From IMG/VR virus record IMGVR_UViG_3300048599_000771, positions 1 to 51,142 of that record: a DNA stretch of 51,142 bases. One strand, written 5' to 3'. Made by a program: the position numbers and the translations under genes. Source of the DNA: a virus. Taxonomy: Duplodnaviria > Caudoviricetes. The notes beneath the pieces were generated by a model that was not told the origin of the DNA, ran no database searches, and saw nothing but the letters and a program-made list of their open reading frames with translations. Shown piece by piece: positions 20,492-26,573 of this stretch. Each line of letters starts with the position of its first letter. Position 1 is the first letter of the stretch.

Positions 20492-21046
20492 ATGGCAAAG
20501 GATGGCACAATGCGCGGCGGTGCGCGCATCGGCGCCGGGCAGAAGAAAAAGCCCCTTTCGGACAAAATCGCCGAGGGCAACCCCGGCAAGCGCAAGCTCA
20601 CAGTGCTGGATTTCACGGCGAACGCCGCCGACCTCGAAGGCCAGACCATGCCGCAGCCCCGCGCCTATCTCGCCGCCAAGCAGAAGAACGGCAAGGACCT
20701 GTTGGCCCTGGACATCTACGAATCCACGTGGAAATGGCTGGACGAGCGGGGCTGCGCGAACCTCGTCCCTTCGCAGATTCTGGAGCAGTACGCCATGGCA
20801 ATCTCCCGCTGGATTCAATGCGAGGAATGCATCACCGAGTTCGGCTTCCTGGCGAAGCACCCGACCACCGGCAACGCCATCCCCTCGCCCTATGTGGCGA
20901 TGAGTCAGTCCTTCAGCAAGCAGGCCAACAACCTGTGGTACCAGATCTATCAGGTGGTCCGGGAGAACTGCTCCGTTGAGTTCAAGGGCGCGACGCCCCA
21001 TGACGATATGATGGAGCGCCTGCTTTCGGCGCGCCGTGGAGGATAA
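20492..21046 (+). CDS. terS: Terminase small subunit (P27-like)
   Basis: MAKDGTMRGGARIGAG...HPTTGNAIPSPYV. Confidence 0.85.
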   Translation: MAKDGTMRGGARIGAGQKKKPLSDKIAEGNPGKRKLTVLDFTANAADLEGQTMPQPRAYLAAKQKNGKDLLALDIYESTWKWLDERGCANLVPSQILEQYAMAISRWIQCEECITEFGFLAKHPTTGNAIPSPYVAMSQSFSKQANNLWYQIYQVVRENCSVEFKGATPHDDMMERLLSARRGG

Positions 21047-21048
21047 CT

Positions 21049-21633
21049 GTGAACATTAAAACCCTGCCCTTGAAGGACGTCCACCCATATGAGCGTAACC
21101 CACGCAAGAACGCCGCGGCCGTAAAGGGTGTCGTGGCCAGCATCCGGGAGTTCGGTTTTCTGGTGCCGCTGGTGATCGACCGGAACCATGAGATCGTGGC
21201 CGGGCACACCCGGTACAAGGCGGCGCAATCCCTGGGCATGAAGGAAGTCCCCTGCGTCATTGCCGACGAGCTGACCGAGGACCAGATCAAAGCCTTCCGG
21301 CTGGCCGACAACAAGGTCGGCGAGATGGCGCAATGGGACATGGACCTGCTGCCGCTGGAATTGCAGGGGATCATGCTGCCCATGACGGACTTCGGTTTCC
21401 AAGCCATTTCGGACGAGGAATTCTCCGACAAATTTACGCTGGACACCGGCGAGAAGAAGCCCTTCCAGCAGATCAGCATCACGGTCCACGACGAGCAGGC
21501 GAAGCTGATGCTGGCGGCGATCAAGTATGTGTATGAGCAGCAGGCCGTGACGGAGACCTTCGGGAACGAGAATCACAACGGGAACGGGCTGTATGAGGTG
21601 GTGAGAGAGTGGGCCGCGCTAAAGAAATTGTGA
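21049..21633 (+). CDS. ParB/Srx N-terminal domain protein
   Basis: PYERNPRKN...SIREFGF..PLVID...IVAGHTRYKAA...FRLADNK. Confidence 0.88.
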   Translation: MNIKTLPLKDVHPYERNPRKNAAAVKGVVASIREFGFLVPLVIDRNHEIVAGHTRYKAAQSLGMKEVPCVIADELTEDQIKAFRLADNKVGEMAQWDMDLLPLELQGIMLPMTDFGFQAISDEEFSDKFTLDTGEKKPFQQISITVHDEQAKLMLAAIKYVYEQQAVTETFGNENHNGNGLYEVVREWAALKKL

Positions 21634-22373
21634 TGAAGGTGCTCCCTTCCGACATCGCCAACGCGTTCATCCGTGCGCATCACTATTCTGGAAAAGTCGT
21701 GAACAATTCTAAGCTCCATTTCGGCGTTTTCCTCGACGGCCAGCTCCATGGCGTCATGAGCTACGGACCATCGTTGGACAAAAGCAAGATCATCGGCCTC
21801 GTGGAGGGTACCGGCTGGAACGAGTTTCTGGAGTTGAACCGCATGGCCTTTGACAGCGTGCTTCCCCGCAATAGCGAAAGCCGGGCCATCGCCATGAGCA
21901 TCCGTCTCCTGAAAAAGCACGCACCGCAGGTGAAGTGGATCATCTCCTTCGCGGACGCCTGCTCCTGCGGGGACGGCACGATCTACCGAGCCAGCAATTT
22001 CGTGCTGACCGGCATCAAGGAAAACCTGAACCTCGCGGAGCTGCCCGACGCCGGGAGCCCCGGTGGCGGCACCCGCATTCACAAGATGACGCTGGCATCG
22101 AACCCCACCACGCCTCGCCGGGAGTTGGGTGGGCTGACGTTCTTCGACGTGACGAACGGCACCTACAATTTCAAGAAGTACCTCGACTATGTGGGCGCGA
22201 AGCCTATCCCCGGCTTCCAGCTCCGGTATATATACTTCATCGACCCGGCCTGCCGTGCGCGTCTGACCGTGCCCATCATCCCATTCTCCAAGATCGACGA
22301 GTTGGGGGCGGGTATGTACAGGGGCGAGAAGGTCACGCAGGCAGAGCGGCATTCCATCATCACGCCGGGATAA
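21609..22373 (+). CDS. Mom-family (GNAT-like) DNA adenine modification protein
   Basis: AHHYSGK...ELNRMAFD..LPRNSESRAI...WIISFAD...GDGTIYRASNF. Confidence 0.75.
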   Translation: MGRAKEIVMKVLPSDIANAFIRAHHYSGKVVNNSKLHFGVFLDGQLHGVMSYGPSLDKSKIIGLVEGTGWNEFLELNRMAFDSVLPRNSESRAIAMSIRLLKKHAPQVKWIISFADACSCGDGTIYRASNFVLTGIKENLNLAELPDAGSPGGGTRIHKMTLASNPTTPRRELGGLTFFDVTNGTYNFKKYLDYVGAKPIPGFQLRYIYFIDPACRARLTVPIIPFSKIDELGAGMYRGEKVTQAERHSIITPG

Positions 22374-22390
22374 CCTCCCGGCGCTTTCAT

Positions 22391-22465
22391 GCGCGGATAG
22401 GCTAACAGCAGACCGCCCACCTACCCGGTGGGAAGCGACGGGGCGGCACCGTTCTCCGCGCTCCA
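22391..22465 (+). tRNA. Non-canonical tRNA-Gly-like element (anticodon ACC, encoded CCA)
   Basis: Acceptor GCGCGGA/TCCGCGC + T + CCA; anticodon arm CCCAC-CTACCCG-GTGGG; T-arm GACGG-GGCGGCA-CCGTT; weak D arm. Confidence 0.75.
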
Positions 22466-22490
22466 TTTCGATTCACAAACGGGAGAAGCC

Positions 22491-23804
22491 ATGAACATTC
22501 AGAAGATCCCGGCTGCCCTGCTCAACCCTGCGGCGTACAATCCGCGCAAAGACCTGAAACCGGGCGACAAAGAGTACGAAAAGCTCAAGCGGTCCATCGC
22601 CGAGTTCGGGTATGTGGAGCCGGTCATCTGGAATGCCCACACCTGCAACGTAGTCGGCGGCCATCAGCGGCTGAAGGTGCTGCTGGACCTGGGCCACACC
22701 GAAATCGACTGCGTGGTGGTCGATCTCGATCTCCAGCGAGAGAAGGCGCTCAACATCGCTCTAAACAAGATTCAGGGCGATTGGGACGAGGGCAAGCTGG
22801 CTTCCCTCATGGCAGATTTCGACGCTGAGGCGTTCGATGTGTCGCTGACCGGCTTCGACGCGTCCGAAATAGACGCACTGCTCAACAAATTCTACTCCAA
22901 GGATGCCGTGGAGGACGGTTTCGACGCTGACGAGGCAAAGAAGGACATCGAGGCTTCAGGCGGCTCTACCTCTCACGCCGGCGACCTCTGGCGGCTGGGC
23001 GATCACCTGCTCCTGTGCGGCAATCCGGCCGAGGCGGCGAGCTACGAGCGGCTCATGGGGGCCGAGCGCGCACAATGCGCGATCACTTCGCCGCCCGTCG
23101 ATCCCAAGGTATACGCCAGGGACGGCATCGACCCCTGGCTGGATCGCATGGGCGCGGTCATCAAGCACCTGACCCAGTACGCAGACATCATCTGTTGGCA
23201 GACCGCCGACCTCATGAAGACTGGGAGCCAATTCATCGAGCCGACCGGCTTCCACTCCATCCGGCTGTTCGCGGACGCGAACTACCGCCCACTGTGGATT
23301 CGCGTCTGGAAGATGGCTGGAGGCGCACCCGGCGCCGGTCCGTTGCAGCTCGCGTCCACAAAGCCCGCGCCACAATACGATACCGTGGCGGCGTTCGCCG
23401 GCCAGAGTCCGGCTGGCAGCCAAGAGACGGACGCCTACAACGATCAGGAGTATTCCTGGGTGTCGACCTTCGCCTCCCATGCCTTCCAATTCGTGCGCCG
23501 TCTCACCCACGACGAGCGTCGCAAATGGGGGTACGCCGGCGTGTGGGAGGTCCCCGCCGTCCGGCGCGATAAGGACAGCAAGCCGCAGATCCCGGTGGAA
23601 CTTCCGTGGCGCTGCCTCAAAATGCACTCCGATATGAACAACGTGATTCTGGACCCCTTCGCGGGCCTCGGCACAACGATCATCGCCGCCGAGCAGAGCG
23701 GGCGCGCCTGCCGGGCTATTGAGGCAGACCCAATGCGCTGCGATCTGATTGTGCGCCGTTGGGAGCAGTTCACCGGGGATAAAGCCGAGAAGATCGAGGC
23801 GTAA
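22491..23804 (+). CDS. ParB-fused N4/N6 DNA methyltransferase, catalytic motif altered (TSPPV)
   Basis: N-terminal ParB (YNPRKDL, VVGGHQR); DLWRLGDHLLLCG; ILDPFAGLGTT SAM motif. Confidence 0.8.
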   Translation: MNIQKIPAALLNPAAYNPRKDLKPGDKEYEKLKRSIAEFGYVEPVIWNAHTCNVVGGHQRLKVLLDLGHTEIDCVVVDLDLQREKALNIALNKIQGDWDEGKLASLMADFDAEAFDVSLTGFDASEIDALLNKFYSKDAVEDGFDADEAKKDIEASGGSTSHAGDLWRLGDHLLLCGNPAEAASYERLMGAERAQCAITSPPVDPKVYARDGIDPWLDRMGAVIKHLTQYADIICWQTADLMKTGSQFIEPTGFHSIRLFADANYRPLWIRVWKMAGGAPGAGPLQLASTKPAPQYDTVAAFAGQSPAGSQETDAYNDQEYSWVSTFASHAFQFVRRLTHDERRKWGYAGVWEVPAVRRDKDSKPQIPVELPWRCLKMHSDMNNVILDPFAGLGTTIIAAEQSGRACRAIEADPMRCDLIVRRWEQFTGDKAEKIEA

Positions 23805-24469: not shown

Positions 24470-24988
24470 GTGAGCAATCCTTACCGCATCACCCACCATG
24501 GGTACGGCGTCGCTGCTTTCGCGGGCGGCGGCGAGTTCCTGTTCGACCTGGCCGACCTACCCCTGATTCTACGCCATACCTGGCACCTGGGAAAGCGTGG
24601 CTACCCGGCCACGCATACCCGGCGCGGGACGGTTGTGCTCCATCGCCTCTTGTTCTCGGACATGGACGGCTACGAAATCGACCATATCAATGGGGACAAG
24701 CTGGACAACCGCCACGCCAACCTGCGCGCCTGCACGCACCAGCAGAACGGGTTCAACCAGAAGCGGCGACAAACCAACACCAGCGGATATATCGGCGTGA
24801 GCTTCGCACCACGGCTGAGCTGCTTTGAGGCGTACATTCACTATAACGGGACGAAGCACCACCTGGGCCTGTACGCCGACCCTGCTGCTGCCGCGCGGGT
24901 GCGCGATTGCGTGGCGCGGTTGCTGTTCGGCGAATACGCGCGCCTGAATTTCCCCAGGAAGGCGGGCCGCAGGTATGGCGCGGGCTAA
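24470..24988 (+). CDS. HNH-AP2 homing endonuclease
   Basis: LHRLL...IDHINGDKLDNRHANLR...NTSGYIGV...HLGLY...AAARVRD. Confidence 0.88.
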   Translation: MSNPYRITHHGYGVAAFAGGGEFLFDLADLPLILRHTWHLGKRGYPATHTRRGTVVLHRLLFSDMDGYEIDHINGDKLDNRHANLRACTHQQNGFNQKRRQTNTSGYIGVSFAPRLSCFEAYIHYNGTKHHLGLYADPAAAARVRDCVARLLFGEYARLNFPRKAGRRYGAG

Positions 24989-26573
24989 GCGGTTCAAGCC
25001 CACGGAGTTCATGCTGCCCGCCTCCCACTACGACAAGGCCCGCGCCGACCACGCCGTCGCTTTCATCCAGAGCCTCAAGCATACCAAAGGCGTGTGGGCG
25101 GGCCAGCCGTTCCTTCTGTTCGACTGGCAGGAGAAGATCATTCGGGACCTGTTCGGCGTGGTCAAAGAGAACGGCTACCGGCAGTTCAACACCGCCTTCG
25201 TGGAAATTTGCAAAAAAGCAGGAAAAAGCGAGCTCGCCGCTGCCGTTGCGCTGTACATGCTCTGCGCCGACGAGGAAGAAGGTGCGGAGATTTACGGCTG
25301 CGCCAACGATCGAGCGCAAGCCAGCATCGTGTTCGACGTGGCAAAGGACATGATGCTCCAAAGCCCGGCGCTGCTCAAGCGCATCAAGATCGTGGAGAGC
25401 CAGAAGCGCCTCGTCTACACGCCCACACGCAGCATCTATCAGGCGCTTTCTTCGGAGGTCGCCTCCAAGTACGGCTATAACGTCCACGCCTGCATTTTCG
25501 ACGAGCTATTGGGCCAGCCGAACCGGAAGCTGTTCGATGTCATGACGAAAGGTTCCGGCGCGGCGCGCAAGCAGCCGCTGAATTTCGTCATCACCACAGC
25601 CGGCTCCGACAAGAACAGCATCTGCTACGAGGTGCATTCGAAGGCCGTGGACATTCTGGAAGGCCGCAAGCACGATTCCACCTTCTATCCGGTGGTGTAC
25701 GGCGCGCCGACCGACGCCGACTGGACAGACCCGAAGGTGTGGCACAGCGTCAATCCCTCGCTGGGAAAGACCGTGGACCCGGAATTCTACCGCGCCGCCT
25801 GCGAGAGCGCGAAGCAGAACCCCGCCGAGGAAATGCAGTTCCGGCAATTCTTCCTGTGCCAGTGGACAAACACCACCGTCCGGTGGATGCCCATGGACAC
25901 GTGGGACGCCTGCGCGTTCCCGGTGGACCCGGAGCGCCTTCGCGGGCGCGTCTGCTACGGCGGTCTCGACCTTTCCTCCACTACCGACATCACGGCGTTT
26001 GTGTTGGTGTTCCCTCCCGAAGATGATGAAGGTAAATACGAAATCCTGCCGTTCTTCTGGCTCCCGGAGGACAACGTGGATCTCCGCGTACGGCGCGATC
26101 ACGTTCCCTACGATATCTGGGCCAAGCAGAGACACGTGTTCACCACGGCGGGGAACGTCGTGCACTACGGCTTCATTGAGGAATTCATCGAAGAACTGGG
26201 CACGAAGTACAACATCCGGGAGATCGCTTTCGACCGCTGGGGCGCCGTGCAGATGACGCAGAACCTTGAGGGGCTGGGCTTTACCGTCGTGCCTTTCGGC
26301 CAAGGCTACAAGGACATGTCGCCGCCCACCAAGGAACTCATGAAGCTGACTTTGGAGAAGAAACTGGCCCATGGTGGGCACCCGGTGCTCCGGTGGATGG
26401 TGGACAACGTGGCAATCCGCACCGACCCGGCCGGCAACATCAAAGCCGACAAAGAAAAGAGCACGGAGAAGATCGACGGCGCAATCGCCACCATTATGGC
26501 GCTCGACCGGGCGATCCGGCACGACGGCGTGGGTGGGTCAGTGTACGATAGTCGCGGACTGCTTCAGCTATAA
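24975..26573 (+). CDS. terL: Terminase large subunit
   Basis: EICKKAGKSELAA Walker A, IFDEL, ITTAG, GGLDLS, KIDGAIA. Confidence 0.95.
   Translation: MARAKRFKPTEFMLPASHYDKARADHAVAFIQSLKHTKGVWAGQPFLLFDWQEKIIRDLFGVVKENGYRQFNTAFVEICKKAGKSELAAAVALYMLCADEEEGAEIYGCANDRAQASIVFDVAKDMMLQSPALLKRIKIVESQKRLVYTPTRSIYQALSSEVASKYGYNVHACIFDELLGQPNRKLFDVMTKGSGAARKQPLNFVITTAGSDKNSICYEVHSKAVDILEGRKHDSTFYPVVYGAPTDADWTDPKVWHSVNPSLGKTVDPEFYRAACESAKQNPAEEMQFRQFFLCQWTNTTVRWMPMDTWDACAFPVDPERLRGRVCYGGLDLSSTTDITAFVLVFPPEDDEGKYEILPFFWLPEDNVDLRVRRDHVPYDIWAKQRHVFTTAGNVVHYGFIEEFIEELGTKYNIREIAFDRWGAVQMTQNLEGLGFTVVPFGQGYKDMSPPTKELMKLTLEKKLAHGGHPVLRWMVDNVAIRTDPAGNIKADKEKSTEKIDGAIATIMALDRAIRHDGVGGSVYDSRGLLQL

Follow-up and report, generated by a model that had tools for sequence, protein, structure and literature searches.

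A Mom-linked RNA of tRNA-Gly descent in a tailed virus and its possible role as a glycyl donor outside translation

Why should a tRNA-like element that lacks much of what translation requires stand directly behind a gene for a DNA-modifying enzyme? The question is raised by a virus of the Caudoviricetes, IMG/VR record IMGVR_UViG_3300048599_000771, whose 51,142 nucleotides (nt) constitute the window analyzed here and are entirely viral, without host DNA. At positions 22391-22465 it carries a 75-nt cloverleaf, 17 nt past the stop codon of a gene that belongs to the Mom family. A first-pass annotation, made from the sequence alone, had read this cloverleaf as a dedicated donor of glycine to Mom. 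We find that the element folds and covaries as a cloverleaf, that it is linked to Mom across related loci, and that it keeps the marks for charging while it loses the marks for decoding. It is almost certainly a functional, Mom-linked RNA of tRNA-Gly descent. That it would be a glycyl-donor RNA dedicated to Mom and kept out of translation is the reading that we consider likely, with charging and use by Mom as its predicted steps.

The use of charged tRNA-Gly by Mom as a donor in DNA hypermodification was shown only in 2023-2026, and an earlier version of the work on the glycine donor of Mu Mom is said to have been posted by Silva et al. on bioRxiv in 2023. The co-substrate of Mu Mom is Gly-tRNAGly, from which glycine is passed to the N6-adenine of double-stranded DNA (Silva et al., Nat Commun 2026, PMC13219725), so that the donor named in the first-pass annotation is borne out. 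The enzyme accepts all three Gly isoacceptors and rejects Gly-tRNAAla (PMC13219725).

A covarying cloverleaf linked to Mom

The stop codon of the Mom gene (22371-22373) is followed by a 17-nt spacer (22374-22390) and then by the element (22391-22465), in which every feature first described is present. These features include a 7-base-pair (bp) acceptor stem GCGCGGA/TCCGCGC with discriminator T (U73) and an encoded CCA, an anticodon stem CCCAC/GTGGG that closes a 7-nt loop CTACCCG (C-U-ACC-C-G), a D-loop AACAGCA without GG (A18/G19), and a T-loop GGCGGCA without TTC. One feature had been missed: the T stem pairs GACGG with CCGTTC and leaves one bulged base in the 3' strand. The anticodon loop retains U33 and has A34, a pyrimidine at position 37 (C37) and a potential C32-G38 pair. 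The element carries the full glycine identity set (G1:C72, C2:G71, G3:C70, U73, C35 and C36) and fails the marks of a canonical tRNA at G18G19, T54-Psi55-C56, the regular 5-bp T stem and purine 37. The losses of translation features that had been listed, namely the D-loop GG, the usual T-loop, the purine at 37 and a usual anticodon (here ACC), are all confirmed in the sequence. The minimum free energy (MFE) structure given by RNAfold is the cloverleaf (-31.4 kcal/mol). As had been predicted, standard tRNA finders failed: ARAGORN found 0 tRNA genes in the whole window, and Rfam at E<=10 gave no tRNA match in 22200-22700. Since both searches are negative and the fold energy is ordinary (z -1.11), the single sequence alone proves nothing.

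Homologous loci were drawn from two sets. The viral set comprises 80 IMG/VR loci found with the window Mom protein (Mom identity 69-95%), and the genomic set comprises 78 Mom loci from prokaryote genomes (Mom identity 54-96%), mostly of Bacillota but also of Treponema, Bacteroidota, Pseudomonadota and one Parcubacteria metagenome-assembled genome (MAG). On plain inspection of the DNA past the Mom stops, most of the 80 viral loci proved to have an element of this kind. In several of them ARAGORN reported it as tRNA-Gly(tcc) or as a tRNA whose 'anticodon' had two bases; its calls beside viral Mom genes included no tRNA of another identity, the rest being unassigned with two- or four-base 'anticodons'. 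A covariance model (R1) was built from an alignment (A1) of 30 diverse elements, with the window sequence among the 30 seeds. All element counts derive from R1, and a hand-written cloverleaf finder was used only for seed coordinates.

When the 30-element alignment is laid on a cloverleaf whose T stem is bulged by one base, the paired share of cells is 96.0%, and shuffles give 78.5%. Thirteen of the 21 cloverleaf pairs change on both sides, and on each of the five measures used none of 500 shuffles does as well. Pairing drops to 38-50% if partners are slid by 1-3 columns, and compensatory changes are present in all four stems and in the tertiary pairs. The window element scores 86.1 bits against R1 (E 3.8e-19), a value obtained partly by construction because the window is itself a seed; non-seed relatives score 60-90 bits. 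It is this comparison with homologous loci, and not the single sequence, that establishes the element as more than chance.

Matches to R1 occur in 64 of the 80 viral Mom loci and in 55 of the 78 genomic ones, the latter in several phyla and with an element G+C content of 0.37-0.72. Pooled, the element is found in 119 of 158 Mom loci (128 matches). A conserved, covarying cloverleaf with an NCC loop and U73-CCA, which had been expected downstream of Mom homologues, therefore exists. Nearly all matches (125/128) lie on the Mom strand. Most of the 128 start 1-30 nt past the Mom stop (76), while 10 overlap the Mom end, 13 are found 31-150 nt downstream and 18 at a greater distance downstream. The remaining 11 were classed as upstream; 8 of these lie 1.2-2.2 kb ahead of Mom, and the negative distances of the other 3 (L227, L232, L237) suggest a site at the Mom end. 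The gene 3' of Mom and the element differs between loci. As a control, we searched 80 related large-terminase (TerL) loci spanning 912,658 nt. R1 matched in exactly 3 of the 3 loci with Mom and in 0 of the 77 without Mom, a result that shows specificity and gives no rate, given that the 3 positives are the same contigs as three Mom loci and that some Mom-less loci are short. ARAGORN found no tRNA of any kind in the 80 control loci.

Some loci depart from the common arrangement. In three of them the element lies directly past Mom on the opposite strand (L221:3711-3784, L222:3657-3730 and L196:2228-2296, two of these being Faecalibacterium-type or Clostridiales), and there is therefore no co-transcription with Mom there. 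Two tRNA-Gly(tcc) follow Mom in tandem in L076-L078 and L080. Two tandem R1 matches occur in L184, L187 and L201, and the second copy in L184 and L201 is without the loop CC (TGATCG, CGATTG).

The element also clusters on the phylogeny of Mom. The tree (FastTree, 205 Mom copies) has many weak branches, and near-copies share labels, so that the following values describe clustering and are not a count of events. Presence of the element requires 20 changes on this tree, against 38.9 +/- 1.9 when shuffled, and T-loop class requires 14, against 34.2 +/- 2.0. The window Mom falls in a supported group of 13 rows, 11 of which belong to the class of T-loops that open with GGC.

To establish which features are retained, the 128 matches were reduced to 101 distinct elements (27 duplicates out) and then to 95 by removal of 6 gapped or partial rows (L013, L034, L196, L203, L230 and L238). 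The first two acceptor pairs, G1:C72 and C2:G71, are present in all 95; G3:C70 occurs in 88 (plus 5 with G:U), U73 in 93 and an encoded CCA in 74. A CC is found in the anticodon loop of 92 of the 95, where the preceding base is free (T 48, A 35, G 9); its assignment to positions 35/36 is clear only in 7-nt loops. The marks for glycyl-tRNA synthetase (GlyRS), which had been noted for the window element, are thus also those that its relatives keep, and these positions match the published glycine identity set of U73, G1-C72, C2-G71, C35 and C36 (PMC9976931).

Decoding features, in turn, are mostly gone. The loop between the 5-bp anticodon stem measures 6 nt in 41 of the 95 elements, 7 nt in 29 and 8 nt in 25 (66 non-7-nt), and a 7-nt loop with U33 and purine 37 is found in only 9. 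The T stem is bulged in 79. The T-loop opens with TTC in 44, with TGC in 22 and with GGC, the class of the window, in 18, so that 51 are without TTC; the D-loop GG is present in 39 and absent in 56. A single element of the 95 is canonical in all four respects. U73, a base almost exclusive to bacterial tRNA-Gly, guards Gly-tRNAGly from the deacylase DTD (PMC6097841), a protection that would matter most for a glycyl-RNA not covered by EF-Tu. Furthermore, the first three pairs of the T stem determine EF-Tu affinity (PMC7826273); the T-stem bulge falls in this region and would be expected to weaken EF-Tu binding. As a separate observation, G3:C70 is replaced by G3:U70 in 5 of the 95 elements (L052-L054, L056, L061, L070 and relatives). 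Recognition by alanyl-tRNA synthetase depends chiefly on G3:U70, which is also a DTD determinant (PMC9976931, PMC6097841), and these variants hint that some Mom-RNA pairs may carry another amino acid.

The elbow of the molecule was tabulated for those 80 elements whose D-loop measures 7 or 8 nt. At tertiary pair 18:55, 41 of these have G:U, 36 have A:G, the 3 others have different combinations, and A:U does not occur. At pair 19:56, 73 have G:C, 3 have A:U, 3 have A:C and 1 has U:C. The window element has A18:G55 and G19:C56. Since 18:55 switches between G:U and A:G with both partners together, the missing 'GG' and 'TTC' represent a coordinated swap, and this speaks for selection on a folded L-shape. 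Within the GGC-loop subgroup to which the window belongs (19 distinct loci, 171 pairs), mean identity is 0.876 in the element, compared with 0.575 in the 20 nt upstream, 0.559 in the 30 nt downstream and 0.655 in the 400 nt further upstream (mostly Mom coding). This subgroup also contains a compensatory change in the T stem (GACGG/CCGTTC vs GAAGG/CCATTC). The element is no decaying relic.

The ParB-Mom-RNA unit and its surroundings

The features of the window that frame the element are the following.

20492-21046: small-terminase gene (basis PF05119)
21049..21633, + strand: ParB-like N-terminal-domain protein, 194 amino acids (aa) (PF02195 ParB_N, E 6.2e-12; phrog_620, E 9.4e-51)
21609..22373, + strand: Mom-family GNAT-fold protein, predicted DNA-modification enzyme, 254 aa, GTG start (PF25680, E 3.6e-50)
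22363..22383, + strand: 8-bp hairpin (CGCCGGGA / TCCCGGCG) whose loop contains the Mom stop codon (fold of 22350-22500)
22391..22465, + strand: 75-nt tRNA-Gly-derived cloverleaf (sequence, MFE fold, model R1, covariation)
22491..23804, + strand: fusion of ParB_N with an N6/N4 DNA methyltransferase, 437 aa (PF01555, E 3.2e-14; PF02195, E 1.8e-05; phrog_498, E 1.4e-85)
24975-26573: large-terminase gene

The ParB-like, Mom and ParB-methyltransferase genes sit between the small- and large-terminase genes. The 3' end of the ParB-like gene overlaps the Mom start by 25 nt, and the ATG of the methyltransferase fusion (22491), with GGGAG ahead of it, lies 25 nt past the CCA of the element. A ParB-like gene stands directly 5' of Mom in 131 of 143 assessable related loci, but a methylase stands 3' of Mom in only 64 of 157. 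Consequently, the conserved unit is ParB-Mom-RNA, and the methylase is a variable neighbour outside the conserved core. The four-part, packaging-linked system of ParB, Mom, RNA and ParB-methyltransferase that had been put forward is retained for ParB and given up for the methyltransferase, and 'packaging-linked' describes mere position between terminase genes in this window. A 172-aa open reading frame (ORF) at 24470-24988, between the methylase and the large terminase and overlapping the terminase start, has the look of an HNH/AP2-type endonuclease by eye only.

The protein encoded at 21609-22373 belongs to the Mom family, as had been proposed, and Gly-tRNAGly-dependent modification is its predicted activity. 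It matches PF25680 at profile positions 2-202 of 202 (E 3.6e-50, 170.9 bits against a cut-off of 27.1), phrog_1384 (E 5.4e-44) and the crystal structure of Mu Mom (PDB 8bv8, E 1.6e-22). In the alignment with 8bv8, equivalents of Mu R111 (in ELNRM), S124 (in NSESRA) and D149 (in FAD) are kept, under a mapping in which chain index and Mu numbering are taken to differ by 9, as deduced from the S124A mutation of the crystal construct. R111 and S124 are reported to be essential in Mu Mom (PMC13219725). The N-terminus MGRAKE is common to 12 of 12 aligned Mom relatives, and the GTG start assigned at 21609 is therefore right. Six codons (AGSPGG) are inserted in the window gene at 22047-22068, and none of the 11 aligned relatives has them; the DNA at this site folds as a small CCGGG/CCCGG hairpin. 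Two tandem same-strand Mom-like genes occur in 50 of 159 sequences (the 158 related loci and the window), for example in L009, L013, L020, L021, L025, L027 and L041. In those tandem loci that bear an element, it usually follows the second Mom copy; the window Mom is single.

The hairpin at 22363-22383 is followed by CTTTCAT, which ends at RNA position -1. Among 101 distinct upstream stretches, 80 have a hairpin of at least 6 pairs that ends at most 14 nt from the element, with varied stem sequences; at least 4 T occur in the last 9 nt before the element in 50, and at least 78 have a T at -1, as suits RNase P. A covarying hairpin, a T-rich run and (C/T)AT lie directly 5' of the RNA in most loci, even where the RNA is away from Mom (L040, L049, L050, L011). 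This arrangement fits RNase P processing that leaves the Mom message with a structured 3' end, and it may equally be a leaky terminator. A scan for promoters and terminators gave nothing above shuffles near the element and no promoter-like site that stood out. In L018, L019, L024, L026, L028-L033, L035 and L048, a conserved stretch that resembles a promoter (a box of the TTGCTTT type followed by GGGTAATCT or GAGTAATCT) lies about 20-70 nt past the element; in those phages one transcription unit would therefore close with the Mom-RNA pair, and the next would start right after.

Information on hosts comes from the genomes that carry the closest prophages and does not concern the host of this phage itself. 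These genomes hold canonical tRNA-Gly for GCC, UCC and CCC, with GG, TTCGA, a regular T stem and CTTCCAA-type loops, and with so complete a set there is no decoding gap for a phage RNA to fill. A dimeric GlyRS (TIGR00389 above cut-off) was detected in 4 of 4 of these genomes and GlyQ in 0 of 4, with positive controls included. In a complete Lachnospiraceae genome, the Mom-linked element scores 89.6 bits against R1 and the best host tRNA-Gly scores 64. The MAG with the closest prophage holds a second, weaker R1 match (L274, G009:C4:12609-12681; 59.6 bits) whose acceptor begins ATG and not GCG, and which may be a decayed copy in another prophage.

A predicted glycyl donor and its alternatives

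The donor model can be laid out as a series of steps. The RNA would be transcribed as part of the ParB-Mom operon and excised in the manner of a pre-tRNA, with an RNase P cut after the U at -1 that would leave the Mom mRNA ending in the 22363-22383 hairpin, CCA being encoded in advance. The dimeric GlyRS of the host would charge it with glycine through G1:C72, C2:G71, U73 and C35/C36, the retention of these marks being what the alignments document. The resulting glycyl-RNA would be a poor ligand for EF-Tu and the ribosome on account of its bulged T stem, altered elbow, pyrimidine 37, possible C32-G38 closure and A34. By analogy with Mu, Mom would then move glycine from the RNA to N6 of adenine in double-stranded phage DNA, and the product would rearrange to N6-carbamoylmethyl-adenine and block restriction. 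The core of the first-pass annotation, a dedicated glycyl donor shielded from translation, comes through the computational checks in this form, with glycylation, EF-Tu shielding and use by Mom as its putative parts.

Several observations weigh against a donor role. The fold energy of the window element is unexceptional on the single sequence, with 27 of 200 shuffles at least as stable. The upstream hairpin and T-run are terminator-like in 45 of 101 stretches, and efficient termination would demand read-through or a separate promoter. Under the mapping described above, the position of Mu R151 is a Cys in the window Mom, and R151 is named among the essential residues of Mu Mom (PMC13219725). Mu Mom and homologues reported to be active in E. 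coli work on host tRNA (PMC13219725), and a private donor is therefore not needed in principle. GlyRS would have to read C35/C36 in 6- or 8-nt loops, or in a loop possibly closed to 5 nt, and the altered elbow could be as much of an obstacle to RNase P, GlyRS or the CCA-repair enzyme as to EF-Tu. Finally, the R1 search found no element within 3 kb in 39 of the 158 Mom loci. In 15 of these 39, a search with filters off gave one weak match at E<0.001 (L194, 24.7 bits), and in whole-record searches of 5 no-match viral records the element was found in 0 of 5, one of them a provirus rated 100% complete; the remaining 24 loci were covered by R1 with default filters, within 3 kb only. Given these loci, the complete provirus among them, and given that Mu is without such an element, the RNA is an accessory to Mom and not a requirement.

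The alternative that fares best is that the element is a tRNA-shaped signal for processing, stability or regulation and donates nothing: an RNase P cut would split the Mom message from the next cistron, or the structure would tune read-through or translation of the neighbour. Its position inside the operon, 17 nt past one gene and 25 nt ahead of the next start codon, suits this explanation, as do the hairpin ahead of it in 80 of 101 distinct contexts, the T at -1 in at least 78 of 101 and the lack of a promoter-like site nearby. However, cleavage alone needs none of the charging marks that are kept (invariant G1:C72 and C2:G71, U73 in 93/95, loop CC in 92/95 and CCA in 74/95), and a processing signal would not track Mom specifically while the downstream gene changes, nor be absent from 77 related Mom-less loci of similar operon layout. 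We therefore judge it unlikely as a substitute for the donor role, with which it can coexist.

A second alternative, which we hold to be somewhat less probable again, makes the RNA a decoy or regulator that binds Mom, for instance to restrain a toxic enzyme, or that binds GlyRS or a host factor attacking tRNA-Gly (an anticodon nuclease, say, or a GNAT toxin), and that passes no glycine to DNA. In Mu, mom is harmful when expressed without regulation, a point in favour of such a restraint, and the distorted loop would presumably resist anticodon nucleases. GNAT toxins such as TacT recognise Gly-tRNAGly by U73 and G71 (PMC9976931), both kept here. Yet a decoy for host factors would have no need to adjoin Mom or to be inherited with it, no host toxin is linked to the loci examined, and the fact that the full charging set and the CCA are kept suggests an acylated species.

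That the element helps to decode GGN codons as an ordinary phage tRNA-Gly is very improbable. ARAGORN does call tRNA-Gly(tcc) beside some related Mom genes, and 9 of 95 elements keep a 7-nt loop with U33 and purine 37, but the window element combines A34, C37 and a potential C32-G38 pair with a bulged T stem and has neither TTC nor GG, ARAGORN and Rfam reject it, and 66 of its 95 relatives have 6- or 8-nt loops. Moreover, hosts of the closest prophages already hold GCC, UCC and CCC tRNA-Gly, and decoding would leave the tie to Mom unexplained. On these grounds (deformed loop and T stem, rejection by the tools, full host sets, linkage to Mom) a decoding role was rejected.

We give least credence of all to a functionless, decaying pseudo-tRNA or integration-site remnant: gene finders do class such elements as pseudo-tRNAs (PMC3146451) and the canonical loops are degenerate, but the element is better conserved than spacers and adjacent coding DNA (0.876 vs 0.56-0.66), has compensatory changes in all four stems and the tertiary pairs, and lies mid-genome beside terminase genes, far from the recombinase-like ORF near 46.9 kb (noted by eye only), and the integration-site remnant was rejected on position and conservation.

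We return to the donor model in its general form, to which we incline by a narrower measure than to its application in the window. In many phages and prophages, across several phyla, Mom and the RNA would form an enzyme-RNA pair outside translation, in which a non-decoding descendant of tRNA-Gly, charged by the host and insulated by a bulged T stem and a deformed anticodon loop, would be the private donor of the Mom with which it is inherited. If this is true, it would be the first case of a virus-encoded tRNA that serves a DNA-modifying enzyme and not the ribosome, and viruses would be seen to evolve tRNAs for uses outside translation. It would also explain hundreds of 'pseudo-tRNA' annotations beside mom genes, and it would provide a natural aminoacyl carrier that is charged by a housekeeping synthetase and yet insulated from protein synthesis. 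Natural variation in loop length, in the T-stem bulge and in the 18:55 swap from G:U to A:G would then map the parts of a tRNA that can be removed. For annotation, note that standard tRNA finders miss the subclass of the window element completely.

Relation to known systems

The literature search found no paper that proposes a Mom-dedicated tRNA or draws the functional link. The main text of Silva et al. (PMC13219725), to which the search of that work was confined, contains no mention of 'neighbor', 'co-occur', 'genomic context' or 'phage-encoded tRNA'.

The closest relative of the enzyme with known chemistry is Mu Mom. Both proteins belong to the same family (PF25680, E 3.6e-50; 8bv8, E 1.6e-22), the equivalents of R111, S124 and D149 are kept under the deduced mapping, and the chemistry is presumed to be the same. 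They differ, under that mapping, at R151 of Mu, a Cys in the window Mom, and also in context, which is com-mom in Mu and ParB-Mom in the window phage. Furthermore, Mu carries no tRNA and scavenges three host isoacceptors, whereas the window phage and 119 of 158 related loci have a non-canonical tRNA-Gly derivative, apparently a dedicated one, beside mom.

Ordinary phage tRNA genes resemble the element in being virus-borne, in their tRNA descent and in an encoded CCA. Such tRNAs are detectable and decoding-competent, are usually clustered, and match codon usage or replace cleaved host tRNAs. The window element, in contrast, fails tRNA finders, is solitary and tracks one enzyme gene.

A precedent for the arrangement was described in the ssrA islands of Dehalococcoides, where a 76-bp tRNA-Gly-like 'pseudo-tRNA' lies in the first 150 bp of a mom homologue (McMurdie et al., BMC Genomics 2011, PMC3146451). 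As in the window, a tRNA-Gly-like cloverleaf is coupled to a mom homologue, immediately 5' of which lies a gene with a ParB domain; unlike the window element, which lies 17 nt past the Mom stop, the pseudo-tRNA is inside the 5' end of mom (PMC3146451). McMurdie et al. used the pseudo-tRNA as a primer target, and the passages of their paper that concern it draw no functional link (PMC3146451), because the co-substrate of Mom was unknown in 2011.

The parallel with non-proteogenic tRNAGly of staphylococci, which the first-pass annotation had also invoked, is real. In Staphylococcus, tRNAGly species that bind EF-Tu weakly are maintained for FmhB (Rietmeyer et al., NAR 2021, PMC7826273). These accept glycine and are reserved for a non-ribosomal aminoacyl transferase (FmhB/Fem), as the window RNA would be for Mom. 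They have altered D and T arms, with weak T-stem pairs that lower EF-Tu binding (PMC7826273), and the window element is likewise altered in its D and T arms. A dimeric-type host GlyRS is present in the Staphylococcus case and in the hosts of the closest prophages. The staphylococcal genes, however, are chromosomal, have normal 7-nt UCC anticodon loops, serve cell-wall synthesis and are restricted to the staphylococcal lineage (PMC7826273), whereas elements of the window type are virus-borne, linked to the gene of the presumed enzyme and more deformed (6-8-nt loops, bulged T stem), with DNA as the presumed acceptor. By sequence family, loop and context, the window element is an analogue and not a member of the staphylococcal lineage. 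Overall, it is not a canonical tRNA by the usual tests, and it is a variation on two known kinds, Mom with Gly-tRNAGly on the one hand and non-proteogenic tRNAGly on the other.

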